DNA of 64,000 nt from Acidobacteriota bacterium (lineage in GTDB: Bacteria; Acidobacteriota; Vicinamibacteria; Vicinamibacterales; UBA2999): positions 15,697 through 79,696 of the forward strand of contig JBKPDL010000025.1 of the NCBI GenBank assembly GCA_046727855.1, given 5' to 3'. Below the pieces are notes generated by a model that was not told the origin of the DNA, did not search any database, and was given only the letters and a program-made list of their open reading frames with translations. Numbering within the stretch: the first letter of the stretch is position 1; every line of letters starts with the position of its first letter. Below, in pieces: positions 33,156 to 39,368 of this stretch. A program made the position numbers and the translations under genes.

Positions 33156-33257
33156 TTAGCGCCGGAGAGCCGCCTGCCTGAACTCCGAACGAGAGCGGCC
33201 GTACGCCTGGCGGAATGCCGTGCTGAAGTGGCTATGGCTGTAGAAGCCACAGCTGCT
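33156..33257 (-). pseudogene. C-terminal stump (~34 codons) of an AraC-family regulator
   Basis: Minus frame reads LSSCGFYSHSHFSTAFRQAYGRSRSEFRQAALRR*, the end of the second AraC HTH. There is no upstream AraC sequence; it abuts the stop of gene 33256..33828. Confidence 0.55.
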
Positions 33258-33828
33258 AAGGCGCGACCCTGACGTCGTACGTTTTGCTGAACGTCGTGTC
33301 GTCGTTGTCCTTGAACGCCAGCGTCACGGGCACAAGGGCTTCCCGGCGCAGACTTGGCAGGTCGTACCACACCTCGAACGCGATCGTGATCGTCTGATTG
33401 ACGGTGCCATAGCGATTTGCGCTTGCCGCCGTGACATAGGTGTAATACTCGAGTTCCCCGCCTGTCGGCGGCGTGACGATGCCGCCCGAGGCCTGCTTGA
33501 CTTGCAACGTCACGCTTGTGATGTCGACAGGGAACTCCAATGCATCCTTGTCGTCGGCCTTGCCGTTGAGCGTAACCGCGAGCGAAAAACCTGTCTTCCA
33601 GTCGTAGGTAAGAATGTCATCCGGCTGATTGTTCCCACGAACCACGCGGTACGTCTTTCCGTCGGTCGACTCGTGTGCGATCGCGGGATTCGGCGTCACG
33701 GATATTTCCAGAAAATCATCGACATCCAATGTATCGTCTGGGTCCGTGGGGGACTGGCACGCGCCGGCAAAGAAAACACACCCGACTGCAACGACTATCA
33801 ACACGCCATGTCTCGCTCGCTTCATCAT
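33256..33828 (-). CDS. Small secreted protein / possible lipoprotein, unknown family
   Basis: MMKRARHGVLIVVAVGCVFFAGAC signal with a non-canonical lipobox, then a beta-rich ~165 aa. Immediately downstream of BamA. Confidence 0.65.
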   Translation of the reverse strand: MMKRARHGVLIVVAVGCVFFAGACQSPTDPDDTLDVDDFLEISVTPNPAIAHESTDGKTYRVVRGNNQPDDILTYDWKTGFSLAVTLNGKADDKDALEFPVDITSVTLQVKQASGGIVTPPTGGELEYYTYVTAASANRYGTVNQTITIAFEVWYDLPSLRREALVPVTLAFKDNDDTTFSKTYDVRVAP

Positions 33829-33838
33829 CGTCTCCTGA

Positions 33839-36262
33839 TCAGAAGGTCGTGCCGACGGCAAACCGGAACCCGCGCGGCGGCTGGAACGAGTCGCGGTAGA
33901 TGTTCCACGCGTAAATCAGCCGGAACGGAACATTGATCATCGGCAGCGTGACCCGCAGCTCGACACCGGTCGATGTCCGTAACTGTCGAAGATCGATTGG
34001 CTGGTTCTCGCTGTACGCCTGACCGGCATCATGGAAGGCAAGGGCGCGAACCTGCGGGAAGATGTCGTAGTAATACTCGGCGTTGAAGAGCACGAACTTG
34101 GTGCCGCCGGTGGCGACGCCGTTGGCGTTGGTCGGACCGACGGTTCGCACGTCGACGCCGCGAATTTGCGTTTCGCCGCCGAGAAAATAGCGCTGGTAGT
34201 AGGGGAGCTCGCCGCCGCCGTAGTTCCAGATGCGTCCCGCATTGGCGCGCAAGCCGAGCGCGGTCCGGCGCGAGACAGGAAAGTACATCACCGCTTCGAG
34301 CTCTGGTTTGATGAAACGATTCGTGCCGCCCAGCCATCCACCGGCGTATTGATACTTCGCGGTCAACCGCTTGCCGCTGCGCGGCGCAAATGGGTTGTCG
34401 ATCGTGTTGTGCACGATCGACGGCGTGATGCTGCTCTCGGTGAAACGGCCTTCATCGAGCAGGAACGCGTTGCTGTTCGAGCCCGTTTGCAGCGCTTTCT
34501 GCAGGTCGTCAGTCATTGCCGTTTCGATGACTTCGTAGCCATAGGTTGCGAAGATGCGCGTGAACCGTCGAATCGGAAAGCCCGAAGTGAGATTGAAGCC
34601 GCTGCGGACCTCGCTGTAATCCGTGGTGTTGCTGTTCACCGCGTACTCGAGCTTGCGCGAGTACACGCTCGACCCGGCTGTGATCGCGCGCCCGAACAGA
34701 AATGGTTCGGTGAACGCCAGCTGATAGGTTCGCGAACGCGTCCCGGTCTGGACTGCAACCGTCAGGCTTTCGCCTTTGCCGAGAAAATTGGCCGTGGTGT
34801 ACGAGAAATTGATGAACAACCCTTCGTACTGCGACGCCCCAGCCCCGAAGTTGAGCTGATTCCTGTTCTGCTCCTCCACCTTGATGCCGACGTCGACTTT
34901 GGCGTCAGTGCCATCGGCGTGCTTGACGTCGAGCGCGCGCTCGTCGAGCGGCTTGAAGTAGCCAAGCTGGTTGATCCGGCGCAAGCTGTATTTCAACGCT
35001 TCGGTGTTGAACACCCCGCCTTCGACCAGCGCGAGCTCGCGCCGAATGACCTGGTCGCGCGTGTGCGTGTTACCGGTAAAGTGAATGCGGTTGACGAAAT
35101 ACTGTTTCCCTTCGCTGATCTTCAGCACGATATCGACGACCGTGGAGCCGTCGTTACGAGGACGCAGATCAGGAAACGCGGTGAACTCGAAATAGCCGCC
35201 GGCTCCGTAGAGCTCCCGCGCGCGCTCGAGACCTTTGCGGATCCGCTCCTGGATGTACGTCTCACCAGGCTTGAGTTGAAAGAGCGGCTGCAGCGCTTCG
35301 CCTTTGAGCACCGTATTGCCTTCGAACGTGAAGTCGCCGACGGTGTAGCGGGAACCCTCGGCGACCTCGACCCGCAATTGCACCCATCGCGTTTTGCCGT
35401 CGCGGGAGTCATCCAGCGGCCTCAGCTGCGGCTGGCCGACCCGTGCGGTGATGTAGCCGTGGTCGTGGTAATGATCGATGACGTTCTGCGCGTCATCGCC
35501 AAACTTCTGCGCGTTGTACGCCCCCCGACGAGTCACGAGCGACAGAATGTTTTCTGGCTTGTTGCTTTTCAGGACCTTGGTCAGCTCGGCGTCGCTGAAA
35601 ACGCGGTTGCCGACGAATTCCACGTCGCGAATTGCGATCTTCGGTCCTTCAGATATCGTGAACGTGACGTGTGCCAGCTTCGACCCGCCCGGCAGCTCGC
35701 GTACTGAAGGCTTCACCTCCGCGTCCGGAAAGCCTTTTTCCGCGTAGAGCTCACGCACGATTCCGGCCACGCGGCGCAGCACACTGAAATCGAGGAACGA
35801 ATCGAGACGCAAGTCGATGCCCTTGTCTTTCAGTCGATCGGCAATGTCGGAGCGGGAGACCTTCGTTGCACCGTCGTAGTCGACGATCTTGATGCGCTGC
35901 CGTTCTTCCAGATGAAAGACGATGATCTTGCCGAGCGTGCCATTGCTGAACGGGTAGTCGTGTACTTCGATGGAAAGATCGTCGAGAAAGTTGGTCGCCC
36001 ACAGCCGGCGGAAGTCGGACACCACCAGGCGTTCCGTTTCGTCCGTGTAGAAGACCCACTGGTCACGCGACGGTTCGCTCGGTTTCAATTGGATGTAATA
36101 GAGATATGTTTGCGGCTCGATCGCCGAGGTGCCGCCTTGCTTGTCGAAGCAGAGCAGCATCGCCAGTACGACCGGTTTTGAGCCCGGTAGCGGCTCCTTT
36201 GCCGGAGCGGGTACGGTCATCCCACAAATCGTGGCGGCGGTCAGCAAGGTGGCGGCGAACAT
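33839..36262 (-). CDS. bamA: BamA/Omp85-family outer membrane protein assembly factor (POTRA repeats plus Omp85 barrel)
   Basis: 807 aa. POTRA-like repeats (IAIRDVEFVGNRVFSDAELTKVL, VNRIHFTGNTHTRDQVIRRELAL), barrel motifs (YFLGGETQIRG, FHDAGQAY) and C-terminal ...RFAVGTTF. Confidence 0.9.
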   Translation of the reverse strand: MFAATLLTAATICGMTVPAPAKEPLPGSKPVVLAMLLCFDKQGGTSAIEPQTYLYYIQLKPSEPSRDQWVFYTDETERLVVSDFRRLWATNFLDDLSIEVHDYPFSNGTLGKIIVFHLEERQRIKIVDYDGATKVSRSDIADRLKDKGIDLRLDSFLDFSVLRRVAGIVRELYAEKGFPDAEVKPSVRELPGGSKLAHVTFTISEGPKIAIRDVEFVGNRVFSDAELTKVLKSNKPENILSLVTRRGAYNAQKFGDDAQNVIDHYHDHGYITARVGQPQLRPLDDSRDGKTRWVQLRVEVAEGSRYTVGDFTFEGNTVLKGEALQPLFQLKPGETYIQERIRKGLERARELYGAGGYFEFTAFPDLRPRNDGSTVVDIVLKISEGKQYFVNRIHFTGNTHTRDQVIRRELALVEGGVFNTEALKYSLRRINQLGYFKPLDERALDVKHADGTDAKVDVGIKVEEQNRNQLNFGAGASQYEGLFINFSYTTANFLGKGESLTVAVQTGTRSRTYQLAFTEPFLFGRAITAGSSVYSRKLEYAVNSNTTDYSEVRSGFNLTSGFPIRRFTRIFATYGYEVIETAMTDDLQKALQTGSNSNAFLLDEGRFTESSITPSIVHNTIDNPFAPRSGKRLTAKYQYAGGWLGGTNRFIKPELEAVMYFPVSRRTALGLRANAGRIWNYGGGELPYYQRYFLGGETQIRGVDVRTVGPTNANGVATGGTKFVLFNAEYYYDIFPQVRALAFHDAGQAYSENQPIDLRQLRTSTGVELRVTLPMINVPFRLIYAWNIYRDSFQPPRGFRFAVGTTF

Positions 36263-37182
36263 CAGAACTTGATCCGGACGCCGAGCTCGCCCACAAGTCG
36301 CGTTTGCTGCTCATCATCCGCGCCGCGAGTCAGCCGCCACCCATAGCCGCCTTCGACAAAGACGCCGACACGCGAAGAGATCGCCGCCTGCAGCCCGCCC
36401 TTCCCGAGCACAGTTCCTGCATCGCGCTCGGCACGGTCAGTCAGTTGCGCGCGATACTCGCCGCCGGCGTAAATGCTCGCCATCGCGTGCGGTGTGAAGT
36501 AGTACGCAAGCCCTCCGTGCGCCTGCAACGAGGGCGCACCGGGTCCGGTTGCGGACGTGTCATCGTCTTGGTCATCGCCAAAGCTCGATGAGCCGATGAG
36601 ACCGCCTCTGATGGCAAACCTGTCGCTCACGAAGTGCGTGATGTCGACATGTAGCGTCACTTGCCAGGGGAACACGTCCTGGCTCGAAGTGAACTTGTCG
36701 ATCGAGCCAGACAGCCCAATCGACGTGACACCAGTCCCGCCGACGGCGCGCGGCTCGATGTCCTCTGTTTGGCCGTTCAAAAAGGGGTCTGACCCCTTTT
36801 CCGACCCCTTTTCCGACTGCACACCTTGCTCGGCGAGCGCCGGGGTCGCGGTGATAGCGAATGCCATCAGGACGAGGCGCAACAGATAGCCGATGTTTCG
36901 CACCGTCACGATGAGCGCGCGATGGCACCCCAGCTTTTTGCGAAGATGGCTGACGTGGACGTCGACCACGCGGTCGAGCGGGTGGAACGCGCGACCGAAT
37001 ACGGCGGTCATCAAGGTCTCGCGCGACACGACGCGCCCCGCGTGCTGCAGCAGGCACGCCAGGATTTCGTACTCCGTCGTGGTGAGATCGAGCGCGCGCT
37101 GGTTGACCGACAAACGTCTTGCCGCTGGCTCCAATACGATCGAGCAGCTTGAGCAATCGAGCTCGCGTTCCACAGGGGACAC
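36262..37182 (-). CDS. Orphan OmpR/PhoB-type winged-helix DNA-binding domain fused in frame to a TM/signal segment and an OM beta-barrel-like domain
   Basis: N-terminal ~100 aa are Trans_reg_C-like (LTTTEYEILACLLQHAGRVVSRETL...VDVHVSHLRKKL...VRNIGYLLR). Then LVLMAFAITATPALA and ~200 aa of amphipathic strands ending GELGVRIKF. The stop overlaps the bamA ATG (TGATG). Confidence 0.6.
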   Translation of the reverse strand: MSPVERELDCSSCSIVLEPAARRLSVNQRALDLTTTEYEILACLLQHAGRVVSRETLMTAVFGRAFHPLDRVVDVHVSHLRKKLGCHRALIVTVRNIGYLLRLVLMAFAITATPALAEQGVQSEKGSEKGSDPFLNGQTEDIEPRAVGGTGVTSIGLSGSIDKFTSSQDVFPWQVTLHVDITHFVSDRFAIRGGLIGSSSFGDDQDDDTSATGPGAPSLQAHGGLAYYFTPHAMASIYAGGEYRAQLTDRAERDAGTVLGKGGLQAAISSRVGVFVEGGYGWRLTRGADDEQQTRLVGELGVRIKF

Positions 37183-37242
37183 GCCTCCGTGCCGGTGAGC
37201 GTCGATGAGACGCCACCGGGGCTTTCAGGCGGGCCGGCATTG

Positions 37243-37286
37243 GTGATTGACGACGGATCGCCGCGCGTTTGTTAAGAATTGTTAAG
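37243..37286 (-). promoter_or_regulatory. Conserved upstream block (direct repeat CTTAACAA x2, then CGAT..CAATCAC) before the wHTH-barrel/bamA unit
   Basis: Minus strand: CTTAACAATTCTTAACAAACGCGCGGCGATCCGTCGTCAATCAC. Related to the blocks at 39316-39368 and 41239-41290. Confidence 0.35.
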
Positions 37287-38160
37287 CGCCGTCTGGACGC
37301 ACGCGCATCATCGCGCCGGGACGCATGTCTTCGATGCGGAAGTCGGCGGGAATCTTGAAGAGATCGGGCGACGGTTCGGTTCGCTGAATGTTGGTGAGGC
37401 GGTAAATGGTTTCACCAAATCTCGGGTCGAAGCGCCGCGTCATCACCACCACTTGCAGCTCCGGCGAATACCATCGCTCGATCACAATCTCAATTGCTTG
37501 CACGTTGCCGATGGCACCGGCCGGAATCGTCGTCGTCCGGCGCGTGCCTTCGACTTTCACACCCTCGAGAATTTTCGGCTCCAGTGTTTCCTCGACGGCC
37601 GATCCTGCGGGCATCACCGATGCCATCGACTGTGCTGCGATCACACTCGGCATGCCGCCACCGCTGACCGTCCCAGCCATCGGCGGCGGCGGAATGGACA
37701 CCTCGAAGGTTGGTTCCGTCGGTTCGGCGATCTTGTACTCGAGCATCGGAGCCTTGAACGGCTTCGCGCGGAACGCGACCTTGAGGTCGTAGTTCAGCGT
37801 GATGTGAACACCGCTTTCGGGATCGGTGATGGTCACGATGGGCTGTTGGTTTTTTGCGACGAACGTGCCCACCGCGATGCCCTGCTGTTCGCGGCGCGTG
37901 CGGCCCTGACTGTCGCGCGCCACGGTTGCCGACGTGCGCTGCTCGATCCGATTGCCGTCGGCGAGCACCTGCGTCATTTCGGTAACGGCGTCGGCTGTAT
38001 ACGGCGCATCCCGAACGACGCGTCCGACGTTGATCGGGTCCAGCGCGACGATGCCGATTTCCGGGGGGACTGGCGCGACCTGCGGCAGCACGTCCTGTGC
38101 CTCAGCCGATGTCACAGTCCAACCCAAAAGAATAGATGCCACTACGATGCGTTCGATCAT
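37282..38160 (-). CDS. Secreted protein of unknown family (third gene of the ECF sigma unit)
   Basis: Start at MIERIVVASILLGWTVTSAEA (signal peptide) with AGGAG upstream. The 175 Arg-rich codons upstream in the ORF track overlap the previous gene and are rejected. Confidence 0.6.
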   Translation of the reverse strand: MIERIVVASILLGWTVTSAEAQDVLPQVAPVPPEIGIVALDPINVGRVVRDAPYTADAVTEMTQVLADGNRIEQRTSATVARDSQGRTRREQQGIAVGTFVAKNQQPIVTITDPESGVHITLNYDLKVAFRAKPFKAPMLEYKIAEPTEPTFEVSIPPPPMAGTVSGGGMPSVIAAQSMASVMPAGSAVEETLEPKILEGVKVEGTRRTTTIPAGAIGNVQAIEIVIERWYSPELQVVVMTRRFDPRFGETIYRLTNIQRTEPSPDLFKIPADFRIEDMRPGAMMRVRPDGA

Positions 38161-38165
38161 GATCG

Positions 38166-38702
38166 CTACTCCTGTCCGGCTCGCACGTGAGAAAGATCGC
38201 GCGGCAGGCCGTCTTCGCCCACGAGCACATCCACGTCCACAACCCCTTCGGCGTCGGGCTCGAGCAGCACGAGGCCAAGCGTTTCGAGCGCTGCGCGTGG
38301 AATGCGAATGCGGACAACCTGCAATGCTTCGGGAAACTCCAGCGTGATGGTGGCAATCGTCGTGTCGCGGCTCCGCGACGAGGAATGCGGACGAACTGCG
38401 GCGATGACCGGTCTGTCCTGTCCGACGGCGAGCTTGAACGCGGCGGGTAGCGAGTGACTCGCCAGAGGGCGCGACGGCAACTTTGCCGATGGCGGCGCAT
38501 CGCCCGGCCGCCATGCCAAAAAGGCGAACACGAGCGTGGCCGCGGCTGCTACTAAACCTAGCTTGACTAGTACTATCTGCCGCTGTGACTTCGCGGCACG
38601 CGGTGTGCCTAGCGCGTGCAGTACGCGCGCTTCGAGCACCGCAGGTGCCTTGATCCGGATATCGTCCTGCTCGAACGCGCGCCACGCTGCGTCAAAGTTC
38701 AT
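38166..38702 (-). CDS. Single-pass membrane protein, putative anti-sigma factor
   Basis: MNFDAAWRAFEQDD..., one TM (IVLVKLGLVAAAATLVFAFLAW) and a ~100-aa extracytoplasmic part. The start overlaps the sigma gene stop by 11 nt. No zinc anti-sigma motif. Confidence 0.5.
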   Translation of the reverse strand: MNFDAAWRAFEQDDIRIKAPAVLEARVLHALGTPRAAKSQRQIVLVKLGLVAAAATLVFAFLAWRPGDAPPSAKLPSRPLASHSLPAAFKLAVGQDRPVIAAVRPHSSSRSRDTTIATITLEFPEALQVVRIRIPRAALETLGLVLLEPDAEGVVDVDVLVGEDGLPRDLSHVRAGQE

Positions 38703-39309
38703 ACAGCGCCCCCTTCTCGACGGTTGGGCGACGGAGCTCCGGTCGTGCGACACGCGCGAGGCGCTGCCGAAGCAACTGGCGCGCGCGATGAAGACGCGAT
38801 CGCACTGTCGAAATCGAAATGCGGGTTACCACTGCGGCGTCGGCATAGCTGAATCCATGCAGGTCGCACAGAAGAATGAGCTCGCGATAGCGAGGTGGAA
38901 GTTTCTGAAGCGCGCGTCGGACCTGGGATGCGAGCTCGATACCTGCGAGCGCGTCGGACGGATCATCGACGTAAGTAGTGTGCGCGCTGAAGGGGCTGAT
39001 GACGTCGAGTGAAAAGAATCGGCGCTCCTTGCGGAGCCGTTCGCGGCTCAGGTTGCGGACGATGCCATAGAGGTAGGTCGTGAACGTCGCGCGATCGGGA
39101 TCGTATTTCGCCAGATCGCGGAAGACGGCGACAAACACTTCCTGTGAAATGTCCTCGGCCGCCGCCGGACAGCCCATCATGGCCCGAGCAAATCGGTACA
39201 CGACGTGCTGATAGCGACGGAACACTTCCGTGAAGGCGTCGAGATCGCCGGATGCAGCGAGTTGCACCAGCTCGCCGTCGGAATCGAGCACTTCTACTTC
39301 GGACGCCAT
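38692..39309 (-). CDS. ECF (group IV) RNA polymerase sigma factor
   Basis: Sigma-2 (FTEVFRRYQHVVYRFARAMMG...AEDISQEVFVAVFRDL...TYLYGIVRNLSRERL) and sigma-4 (PPRYRELILLCDLHGFSYADAAVVTRISISTVRSRLHRAR). Confidence 0.9.
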   Translation of the reverse strand: MASEVEVLDSDGELVQLAASGDLDAFTEVFRRYQHVVYRFARAMMGCPAAAEDISQEVFVAVFRDLAKYDPDRATFTTYLYGIVRNLSRERLRKERRFFSLDVISPFSAHTTYVDDPSDALAGIELASQVRRALQKLPPRYRELILLCDLHGFSYADAAVVTRISISTVRSRLHRARQLLRQRLARVARPELRRPTVEKGALYEL

Positions 39310-39315
39310 TCAACG

Positions 39316-39368
39316 GTGATTGGCCGGAGCATCGAAATCGTTCCGGCGAGTTTGTAAAGGTTGTTAAA
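39316..39368 (-). promoter_or_regulatory. Conserved promoter-like block upstream of the ECF sigma gene
   Basis: Minus strand: TTTAACAACCTTTACAAACTCGCCGGAACGATTTCG-N10-CAATCAC. The 30-nt core is 26/30 identical to 41256-41285, with the same N10 spacing to CAATCAC. Confidence 0.45.

Follow-up and report, generated by a model that had tools for sequence, protein, structure and literature searches.

Recurrent fusion of a receiver-less winged-helix domain to a predicted small outer-membrane barrel through a signal-peptide-like segment, beside a bamA paralogue in Vicinamibacterales

ToxR, CadC and TcpP are among the described regulators that resemble the protein reported here; they carry an N-terminal OmpR-family winged helix-turn-helix (wHTH) domain without a receiver, a single hydrophobic segment and an extracytoplasmic C-terminus, and they share with it a link to the cell envelope and its porins. 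The gene in question lies in a 64,000-nt stretch of DNA from a soil bacterium of the Acidobacteriota, the whole of which is called the window below; all coordinates are positions in the window and the whole feature is on the minus strand. The open reading frame (ORF) 36262..37182 (-) comprises 306 aa, or 303 aa when its product is counted from the likely start GTG 37173, and encodes three parts in succession: a receiver-less wHTH domain, a 16-residue signal-peptide-like segment and a predicted eight-stranded outer-membrane beta-barrel. Unlike ToxR, CadC and TcpP, the protein has no linker between the wing of the wHTH domain and the hydrophobic segment, the segment has the length of a signal peptide and bears an AxA motif, and the extracytoplasmic part is an outer-membrane protein (OMP) barrel orthologous to free OMPs. 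No sequence relationship links the two groups beyond the wHTH superfamily.

Other described systems resemble single aspects of the protein. The effector domains of CpxR, PhoB and GlnR (PF00486) are the best sequence and fold matches of its wHTH domain, which nevertheless lacks a receiver and phosphorylation control; its ~100-aa relatives stand alone, whereas the domain in the window is fused to a signal peptide. The predicted barrel shares eight antiparallel strands and a C-terminal Phe with the small OMPs (the OmpA transmembrane domain, OmpW, OmpX and OprF-N), and its free homologues have a Sec signal peptide as those proteins do, but its family falls below the threshold of the Pfam model OMP_b-brl, is tiny, is restricted to the order Vicinamibacterales and lies mostly beside a bamA paralogue. 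In the Bradyrhizobium cytochrome b-c1 precursor FbcH, two proteins encoded by one gene are separated by signal peptidase, and long signal peptides with functions of their own occur in some eukaryotic and viral proteins. Such precursors resemble our proposal in that cleavage at an internal signal would yield an N-terminal product on the cytoplasmic side and an exported C-terminal product, but their N-terminal products are membrane proteins or eukaryotic factors, whereas that of the window gene would be a wHTH domain. We know of no bacterial example in which a transcription-factor domain is the N-terminal product of such a cleavage. A full-text literature search for a transcription factor fused N-terminally to the cleavable Sec signal of an OMP returned only ToxR-type anchors and anti-sigma factors cleaved by signal peptidase, and to our knowledge such a fusion is undescribed in bacteria. 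The anti-sigma factors RsiV and RsiP offer the nearest analogy for the processing proposed below, as they too are N-in proteins whose regulatory domain lies in the cytoplasm, next to a single hydrophobic segment with a site for signal peptidase at the outer face; RsiP is cut by signal peptidase and afterwards by a site-2 protease (S2P), a release in two steps (PMC8844934). By analogy, the protein in the window would differ from them in having a wHTH rather than an anti-sigma domain in the cytoplasm, in a cleavage expected to be constitutive and not ligand-gated, and in that the part that leaves is predicted to be a functional OMP.

Comparison of the locus with its relatives shows, as far as sequence comparison can, that the window gene is a genuine, selected, derived and recurrent gene fusion and not an artefact of annotation. 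Its N-terminal part (36880..37140, -) is a member of the OmpR/PhoB/CpxR effector-domain family and, having no receiver, not a response regulator. Residues 29-101 match the Pfam family Trans_reg_C (PF00486) at E = 7e-24 and 84.1 bits (cut-off 26.2) over profile positions 2-77 of 77, a PDB sequence search matched the DNA-binding domains of GlnR, CpxR and PhoB at E = 1e-15 to 1e-12, and Foldseek aligned the modelled domain with the DNA-binding domains of CpxR, PhoB, RstA and GlnR at TM-scores of 0.68-0.81 on the targets. An AlphaFold2 model of the whole chain, built from a 46-row alignment, has a mean predicted local distance difference test (pLDDT) score of 83; the sheet and helices of the wHTH exceed 90, and the hydrophobic helix, at ~67, begins in the model where the second wing strand would be. 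The recognition helix VDVHVSHLRKKL is intact in the window and conforms to the pattern VDVH(V/I)S(H/R)LR(K/R)KLG, which is conserved throughout. A Pfam search for Response_reg (PF00072) found none in the ORF nor in the upstream +1 frame, and NCBIfam response-regulator models matched through their C-terminal ~90 positions only, far under their cut-offs. The first-pass annotation, made from the letters of the window, had described a complete Trans_reg_C-like domain without a receiver that runs on, with no stop, into a transmembrane- or signal-peptide-like segment, and both statements hold: the wing motif TVRNIGYLLR is followed directly, with no linker, by LVLMAFAITATPALA. It had also seen a likeness to the end of a receiver in a shifted frame starting at ATG 37240. 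That frame does read ...GTRARLLKLLDR, but the ATG is not conserved, being ATA or TAG in L022, L024 and L025, and the frame has no Pfam match.

The C-terminal part (36265..36765, -; 167 residues) extends from a conserved EDIEPR motif to the C-terminal beta-signal GVRIKF. Its last 165 residues are modelled as eight antiparallel strands, most of the block having a pLDDT of 87-97, and Foldseek matched the modelled barrel at probability 1.0 to the OmpA transmembrane domain (1qjp, 1bxw), OmpW (2f1v, 8qxp), the N-terminal domain of OprF (4rlc) and a designed eight-stranded barrel (6x9z). By sequence, the Pfam model OMP_b-brl (PF13505) gave a sub-threshold hit (15.8 against 28.7 bits, E = 0.016), and in the PDB sequence search the barrel part had no match, the wHTH alone being matched. 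The terminal Phe is conserved in the family (rarely Trp or Leu), and free homologues begin with classical signal peptides with an AxA site. The part is thus confidently predicted to have the fold and the sorting signals of a small OMP, and the barrel-like domain with a terminal Phe surmised from the letters alone has been borne out by structure prediction.

The barrel family is small, with 76 representatives among 1.84 billion proteins, and a sample of 401 genomes from across the class yielded it in 13, every one of them from a single order; adjacent bamA sequence was detected at 11 of these 13 loci, and in nearly every locus examined the barrel gene lies beside a bamA paralogue. About 36 barrel-only clusters in the protein search have 180-220 aa and classical signal peptides ending ..AxA|Q(T/E)EDIEPR. 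The wHTH-barrel architecture was found in eight clusters of 53-99% identity and 257-303 aa, drawn from JGI, ENA, Logan and NCBI assemblies, so that the orthologues with the same fusion that the first-pass annotation had proposed to look for do exist; among species representatives, only G000 and G004 are fused. A near-identical but independent contig (L028) encodes a protein 99% identical to that of the window, with 3 substitutions and with the same junction and leader. The long family members P0126, P0128, P0132, P0174 and P0189 were considered as further fusions and rejected, as they are merely long N-terminal gene calls with no wHTH domain.

According to their record titles, the related loci belong to the Acidobacteriota, order Vicinamibacterales, and their genomes are uncultured metagenome-assembled genomes or metagenome contigs. 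A locus scan with a closer alignment (A2) returned 6 and 8 loci, and the DNA of further loci was compared individually; together they present a series of states. In L006/L009, L010, L012 and L015-L018 the genes are separate and the OMP gene has its own ATG; the wHTH gene encodes ~100 aa without a receiver, ending in GH(M/L)(V/L)R and a short variable tail, and is followed by a spacer of 100-150 nt. The spacer holds a second box, CTTAACAAATCTTCACGAAC, which includes the stop codon of the wHTH gene (e.g. L006:6845-6990). In L006 and L015-L018 it also holds (A/C)CAAC-N16-CGTC(T/C)TA, a motif resembling promoters of extracytoplasmic function (ECF) sigma factors, ~12 nt before the OMP ATG, so that in unfused loci the OMP gene would have a promoter of its own, lost on fusion. 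The genes abut in L031 (TAG-ATG, in the same frame) and L032 (TGA-G-ATG), and overlap by 10 nt in L029/L030. They are fused in the window, in L005/L008 (of the same genus) and in L022-L028. The wHTH gene is deleted in L033 (2820-2990; P0010), where the leader, with its CAATCA, hairpin and Shine-Dalgarno sequence, is joined directly to a TTG-start OMP gene, and L007, L011, L013 and L019-L021 have the barrel and bamA with no wHTH. The abutting loci L031:440-470 and L032:446-476 lie on near-identical contigs, between which a 1-nt indel falls at the very boundary of wHTH and OMP; the junction is labile, and a single stop codon separates the two frames in L031.

Since stand-alone wHTH genes of ~100 aa occupy the same position in relatives, the receiver-less wHTH is ancestral at this locus. 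In the barrel tree the fused forms fall into two separate supported clades, one beside the overlapping P0009 and the other sister to the abutting P0021, and the approximately unbiased test rejects a single fused clade (delta log-likelihood 58.5, p = 0.001). A single origin of the fusion is accordingly rejected, and the phylogeny shows at least two independent fusions. The junctions differ in kind as well: in one group the sequence is GYL(L/F)R followed by the hydrophobic h-region of the signal peptide, and in the other GHMLRTSG followed by the h-region, as would result from an L031-like state by the in-frame loss of 14 codons. In the lineage of the window, a deletion took away the variable tail at the C-terminus of the wHTH together with its stop codon, the spacer, and the Met and n-region of the OMP signal peptide, and a comparable in-frame deletion gave rise to the same architecture independently in the second lineage. 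Two-gene orthologues with an intervening stop, which the first-pass annotation had regarded as grounds for calling the fusion an artefact, do exist, but that conclusion is not borne out, the fused state being derived and recurrent.

How the fused gene might work can be read from the arrangement of its parts, and on balance we favour, with some reserve, a single precursor that is cleaved by signal peptidase into an exported barrel and a wHTH acting on an upstream repeat. One precursor would be translated from GTG 37173. The hydrophobic segment would still be a Sec signal, now with a cytoplasmic N-terminal extension of ~100 residues, and would insert as a loop that leaves the wHTH in the cytoplasm. 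The barrel would be translocated, signal peptidase I (SPase I) would cut after ALA, and the barrel would be assembled in the outer membrane. The wHTH with its signal-peptide remnant would remain at the cytoplasmic face of the inner membrane, to be degraded or to be released by an S2P of the RseP type or by SppA. The wHTH would act on the unique CTTAACAA-N2-CTTAACAA repeat, with which the promoter of the wHTH-OMP-bamA operon overlaps, and the output of the regulator would thereby stand at 1:1 with the OMP and be tied to OMP export. SPase I and an S2P protease of the RseP type are both encoded in the genome. RseP has been described as clearing signal peptides and as cleaving FecR (PMC8144685).

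The candidate target of the wHTH lies in the leader. From the TAA (37282-37284) that ends the upstream gene to the ORF there are ~100 nt. All related loci share this stretch as nucleotide sequence, with its elements in the same order: the direct repeat CTTAACAA-nn-CTT(A/T)ACAAAC, 17 nt, CAATCAC, GCCnGCCTGA, a hairpin, the Shine-Dalgarno sequence and GTG. In the window the box reads CTTAACAA-TT-CTTAACAA-AC with a 10-bp period (37267..37286, -); it takes in the stop codon of the upstream gene, and its 3' AAC stands 17 nt before CAATCAC (37243..37249, -). Both the direct repeats and the CAATCAC element are present as the first-pass annotation had recorded them. The box lies upstream of the wHTH in most wHTH-bearing loci with readable upstream sequence, with variants in L006/L015/L018 and L010 and a half-site in L012. 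All fused loci whose upstream sequence is readable retain it, unfused loci have a duplicate of it in front of the OMP gene, and loci that have lost the wHTH lack it or show it half-degenerate (L033, in which the second half has decayed to TTTAACAATTCTCGCGAAAC). The box at 37267-37286 is the sole match at up to 1 mismatch in the 5.2-Mb genome, and the arrangement TTAACAA-N-CAATCAC occurs once in the window against 0 expected. Direct repeats of 10 bp are typical of OmpR-family sites, and the CpxR box is GTAAA-N5-GTAAA; read on the other strand, the candidate site is GTTAA-N5-GTTAA, a 10-bp direct repeat that recalls the CpxR box. The direct repeat is therefore a candidate, and likely, DNA target of the wHTH.

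Several observations weigh against the reading of a cleaved precursor with an active wHTH. The repeat overlaps an ECF-type -35 element (AAC-N17-CAATCAC) and could be promoter sequence rather than an operator. In the whole-chain model, residues 95-109 form one helix at a pLDDT of ~67, and the wing, abutting the hydrophobic core, may hinder DNA binding while the protein is membrane-bound. Because of this abutment, DNA binding would be more plausible after release than in the tethered state, but this is speculation, and the release of the wHTH is itself purely hypothetical. In some group-1 pairs the ratio of non-synonymous to synonymous substitution rates (dN/dS) is higher for the wHTH (0.30-0.39) than for the barrel (0.11-0.19), and the synonymous distances (dS) are near saturation (0.7-1.9), which makes all dN/dS values rough. 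P0005/L024 (L024:3001-3774) begins VRLKLTPIEDGLL.. and lacks the N-terminal four-stranded sheet of the wHTH, which may reflect partial decay of the regulator half in that lineage. Several lineages have no wHTH altogether, and its function is to that extent dispensable. Finally, in the window a TTG codon (L101) before the Arg could give MR-LVLMAF.. by internal initiation, although no Shine-Dalgarno sequence is visible there.

A bolder form of the cleaved-precursor proposal, which we put forward tentatively and think rather unlikely to hold in full, would make the ~115-residue N-terminal part an oversized functional signal peptide that carries a transcription factor. Each export event would leave behind one remnant of wHTH and signal peptide in the inner membrane, S2P or SppA would free the wHTH into the cytoplasm, and the operon would in this way sense the flux of OMP export and feed back on bamA.

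The alternative that retains most force, although we regard it as unlikely, is that the wHTH is a neutral passenger with no regulatory role in the fused lineages, where it would be slowly decaying; the gene would then be an OMP gene with an oversized signal peptide, tolerated only because signal peptidase removes it. The loss of the domain from many lineages, the missing sheet in P0005/L024 and the elevated dN/dS of the wHTH in some group-1 pairs all favour this alternative, and as abutting genes are one deletion away from fusion, the recurrence of the fusion could reflect mutational opportunity. Pairwise dN/dS by the Nei-Gojobori method over the 75-codon wHTH core, however, came to 0.12-0.39 among the fused forms of group 1 and to 0.08-0.10 when group 2 was taken with its sister, against 0.09-0.23 for the barrel and 0.08-0.38 for the wHTH genes of unfused loci. 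Rough as they are, the ratios lie far below 1 over a dS of ~1 in both fused groups, and make it clear that the wHTH has been under purifying selection after fusion and has not evolved neutrally. Against a passenger stand also the absence of stops and frameshifts from all 8 clusters, the invariant recognition helix, and the box, intact in fused loci with readable upstream sequence and degenerate where the wHTH has been deleted.

The first-pass annotation had compared the topology with that of ToxR and CadC, and a bitopic regulator of that type would have a permanent anchor, a wHTH that binds DNA at the membrane, and a barrel-like part that serves as a periplasmic sensor and is never released. 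The comparison stands for the receiver-less N-terminal wHTH, and the order of wHTH, hydrophobic segment and extracytoplasmic domain is that of ToxR-type regulators, for one of which, ToxR, a published account describes membrane tethering of DNA (PMC10629549). It fails for the remainder, as neither a stable anchor nor a linker nor a soluble sensor domain is found. The signal-peptide-like segment, R-LVLMAFAITAT-PALA (36832..36879, -), has a predicted SPase I site after ALA, between 36832 and 36831, and can be aligned to the cleavable signal peptides of unfused homologues over their h- and c-regions. Each of the 8 fused forms has an Arg ahead of the segment and a core of 11-16 residues, then Pro and AxA leading into the conserved mature N-terminus, as in those cleaved peptides; the core begins 3 residues past the wing, with no juxtamembrane linker between them. 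The uncharged run measures 15-25 residues in the fused forms (median 17), and its median in free signal peptides is 18; a stable transmembrane anchor, with about 20 hydrophobic residues, would be longer, and the length is typical of a cleavable signal, so that a permanent anchor seems less likely than a cleavable signal peptide. The C-terminal part, moreover, has its orthologues among free OMPs, at whose rate it evolves, and retains the aromatic beta-signal; the outside of an eight-stranded membrane barrel is hydrophobic, and such a barrel would not behave as a soluble domain in the periplasm. We consider a bitopic regulator improbable on these grounds. Directly past the predicted signal-peptidase site, the window protein has a 22-residue insert, EQGVQSEKGSEKGSDPFLNGQT (36766..36831, -), with a tandem SEKG repeat (tcggaaaagggg x2); the insert has a pLDDT of ~50, is predicted to be disordered, and is restricted to the window and its 99% relative P0001.

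Internal initiation, which the first-pass annotation had coupled with a relic wHTH, would give a barrel with a short signal peptide from the TTG at L101 or a similar codon, the long ORF being read-through of a separate or vestigial wHTH. The window has TTG-CGC (Met-Arg) immediately before the hydrophobic core, P0007 and P0008 have an ATG at GHM-LR, and L022 has a TTG two codons before the Arg, all of which could serve such initiation. In L005, however, the stretch from the wing to the cleavage motif lacks any in-frame ATG, GTG or TTG, and L025 and L023 have GTG codons only inside the hydrophobic core, so that in these loci, with no usable internal start before the core, the barrel could be made only as part of the long chain. 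No conserved Shine-Dalgarno sequence was found at the junction in any fused locus inspected, and ribosomes coming from the upstream GTG meet no stop and would still make the full-length chain. An internal start is therefore rejected as a general mechanism for L005, L025 and L023, and may still serve as a minor route in the window; as an account of the gene it is distinctly improbable, and with the wHTH under purifying selection the notion of a relic is not supported either. The ORF is best regarded as the first-pass annotation had it, as one polypeptide-coding frame of unusual topology that joins wHTH, hydrophobic segment and barrel. The last alternative, that assembly or sequencing went wrong or that a frameshift recently turned a full response regulator into a pseudogene, draws on a superficial likeness between ...RARLLKLLDR in the +1 frame from ATG 37240 and the end of receiver helix alpha-5, and can hardly be right, given that the independent L028 is identical through leader and junction and seven further fused clusters exist, that the upstream gene ends only ~100 nt before the start codon and all relatives have a conserved non-coding leader there, that neither a conserved ATG nor a Pfam receiver signal is present, and that the receiver-less wHTH is ancestral.

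The remaining elements of the leader bear on the expression of the operon. The CAATCAC element, conserved in all related loci, is probably a -10-like promoter element, and AAC-N17-CAATCAC is found again ahead of the neighbouring ECF sigma gene, 6-8 nt from its ATG. Because the same arrangement precedes the sigma gene, the wHTH-OMP-bamA operon is probably dependent on an ECF sigma factor, and the sharing suggests that the sigma gene and the operon belong to one ECF regulon. Upstream of the sigma gene, (G)AAC-N17/18-CAATCAC is seen at 39316-39368 (-) in the window and also in L005, L006, L012, L015, L018, L024 and L033; should CAATCAC be the -10 element, the sigma mRNA would have next to no leader. 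Between the GCCnGCCTGA motif and the Shine-Dalgarno sequence lies a hairpin, CCGGTGGCGTC-tcat-GACGCTCACCGG (37192..37219, -). A hairpin of 9-13 bp, with no T-run, is present at the same position in every related locus and is conserved in stability too, its stem sequence differing by lineage; examples of such stems among L006, L016, L017, L022, L025-L027, L030, L031 and L033 are CCGGTGGACG/CGTCCACCGG, CCAGCCATC/GATGGCTGG and GTCCGGTCGCC/GGCGACCGGAC. An Rfam search of the leader gave no match, and the hairpin may be a regulatory or stabilising RNA element. The Shine-Dalgarno sequence GGAGG (37184-37188) and the likely start GTG (37173-37171) together span 37171..37188 (-). GGAGG stands 10 nt before GTG 37173 and just 1 nt before GTG 37182; this spacing, and the equivalent GTG called in L022 and in the P0001/L028 gene call, with the Shine-Dalgarno sequence and start in the same position, make GTG 37173 the likely start.

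Downstream of the fusion gene lies a bamA paralogue (33839..36262, -), encoding an 807-aa Omp85 protein with POTRA repeats that scores above the BamA equivalog cut-off (483 against 297 bits). The last base of the fusion gene's TGA is also the A of the bamA ATG, a 1-nt overlap that fused loci keep; the fusion gene is probably translationally coupled to bamA, as had been proposed from the window alone. A second bamA paralogue of 50% identity is present elsewhere in the genome (G000:C60:32847-35090; L048:5737-8406), downstream of a gene for a ClpA/ClpC-type ATPase, and the surroundings of this second copy, with the Clp ATPase upstream, were uninformative as to which bamA is the housekeeping one. 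Directly after bamA, related loci have a gene of ~190 aa with a lipoprotein-type signal (..FFAGAC / ..ILAGC), at 33256-33861 (-) in the window and at L005:11148-11717, L006:9889-10548 and L007:10195-10845; Pfam and NCBIfam searches of it gave no match. It may encode an accessory lipoprotein of the window BamA paralogue, and that bamA may itself be an accessory paralogue working with the small OMP and this conserved downstream gene. In one genus the small OMP gene is divergent from bamA and still adjacent to it (L007:7035-7751; G012), and the OMP-bamA neighbourhood is conserved even where the operon structure differs. Upstream of the fusion gene (37282..39309, -) lie genes for an ECF sigma factor (38692-39309), a single-transmembrane anti-sigma-like protein (38166-38702) and a conserved secreted protein (37282-38160). 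The order of sigma, anti-sigma-like and secreted genes is the same in relatives, and in L024 and L025 the sigma gene is immediately upstream of the fusion gene.

The locus offers a natural comparison series in which the same two genes are separate, abutting, overlapping, fused (twice) or reduced by loss. It indicates that a folded cytoplasmic domain of ~100 residues can precede a signal peptide over long evolutionary time with both parts under selection. As annotation pipelines currently label the fused genes 'DNA-binding wHTH protein', such labels should be read with caution. If the wHTH is inactive, the fused genes would be a natural test of how much N-terminal cargo is tolerated by Sec signal peptides. 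If the released wHTH is active, they would represent a new coupling of gene regulation to protein export and outer-membrane biogenesis, placed beside bamA and under an ECF-type promoter. Should a regulator truly be carried on the signal peptide, it would be a bacterial counterpart of the post-targeting functions of eukaryotic and viral signal peptides, evolved twice by the fusion of neighbouring genes.

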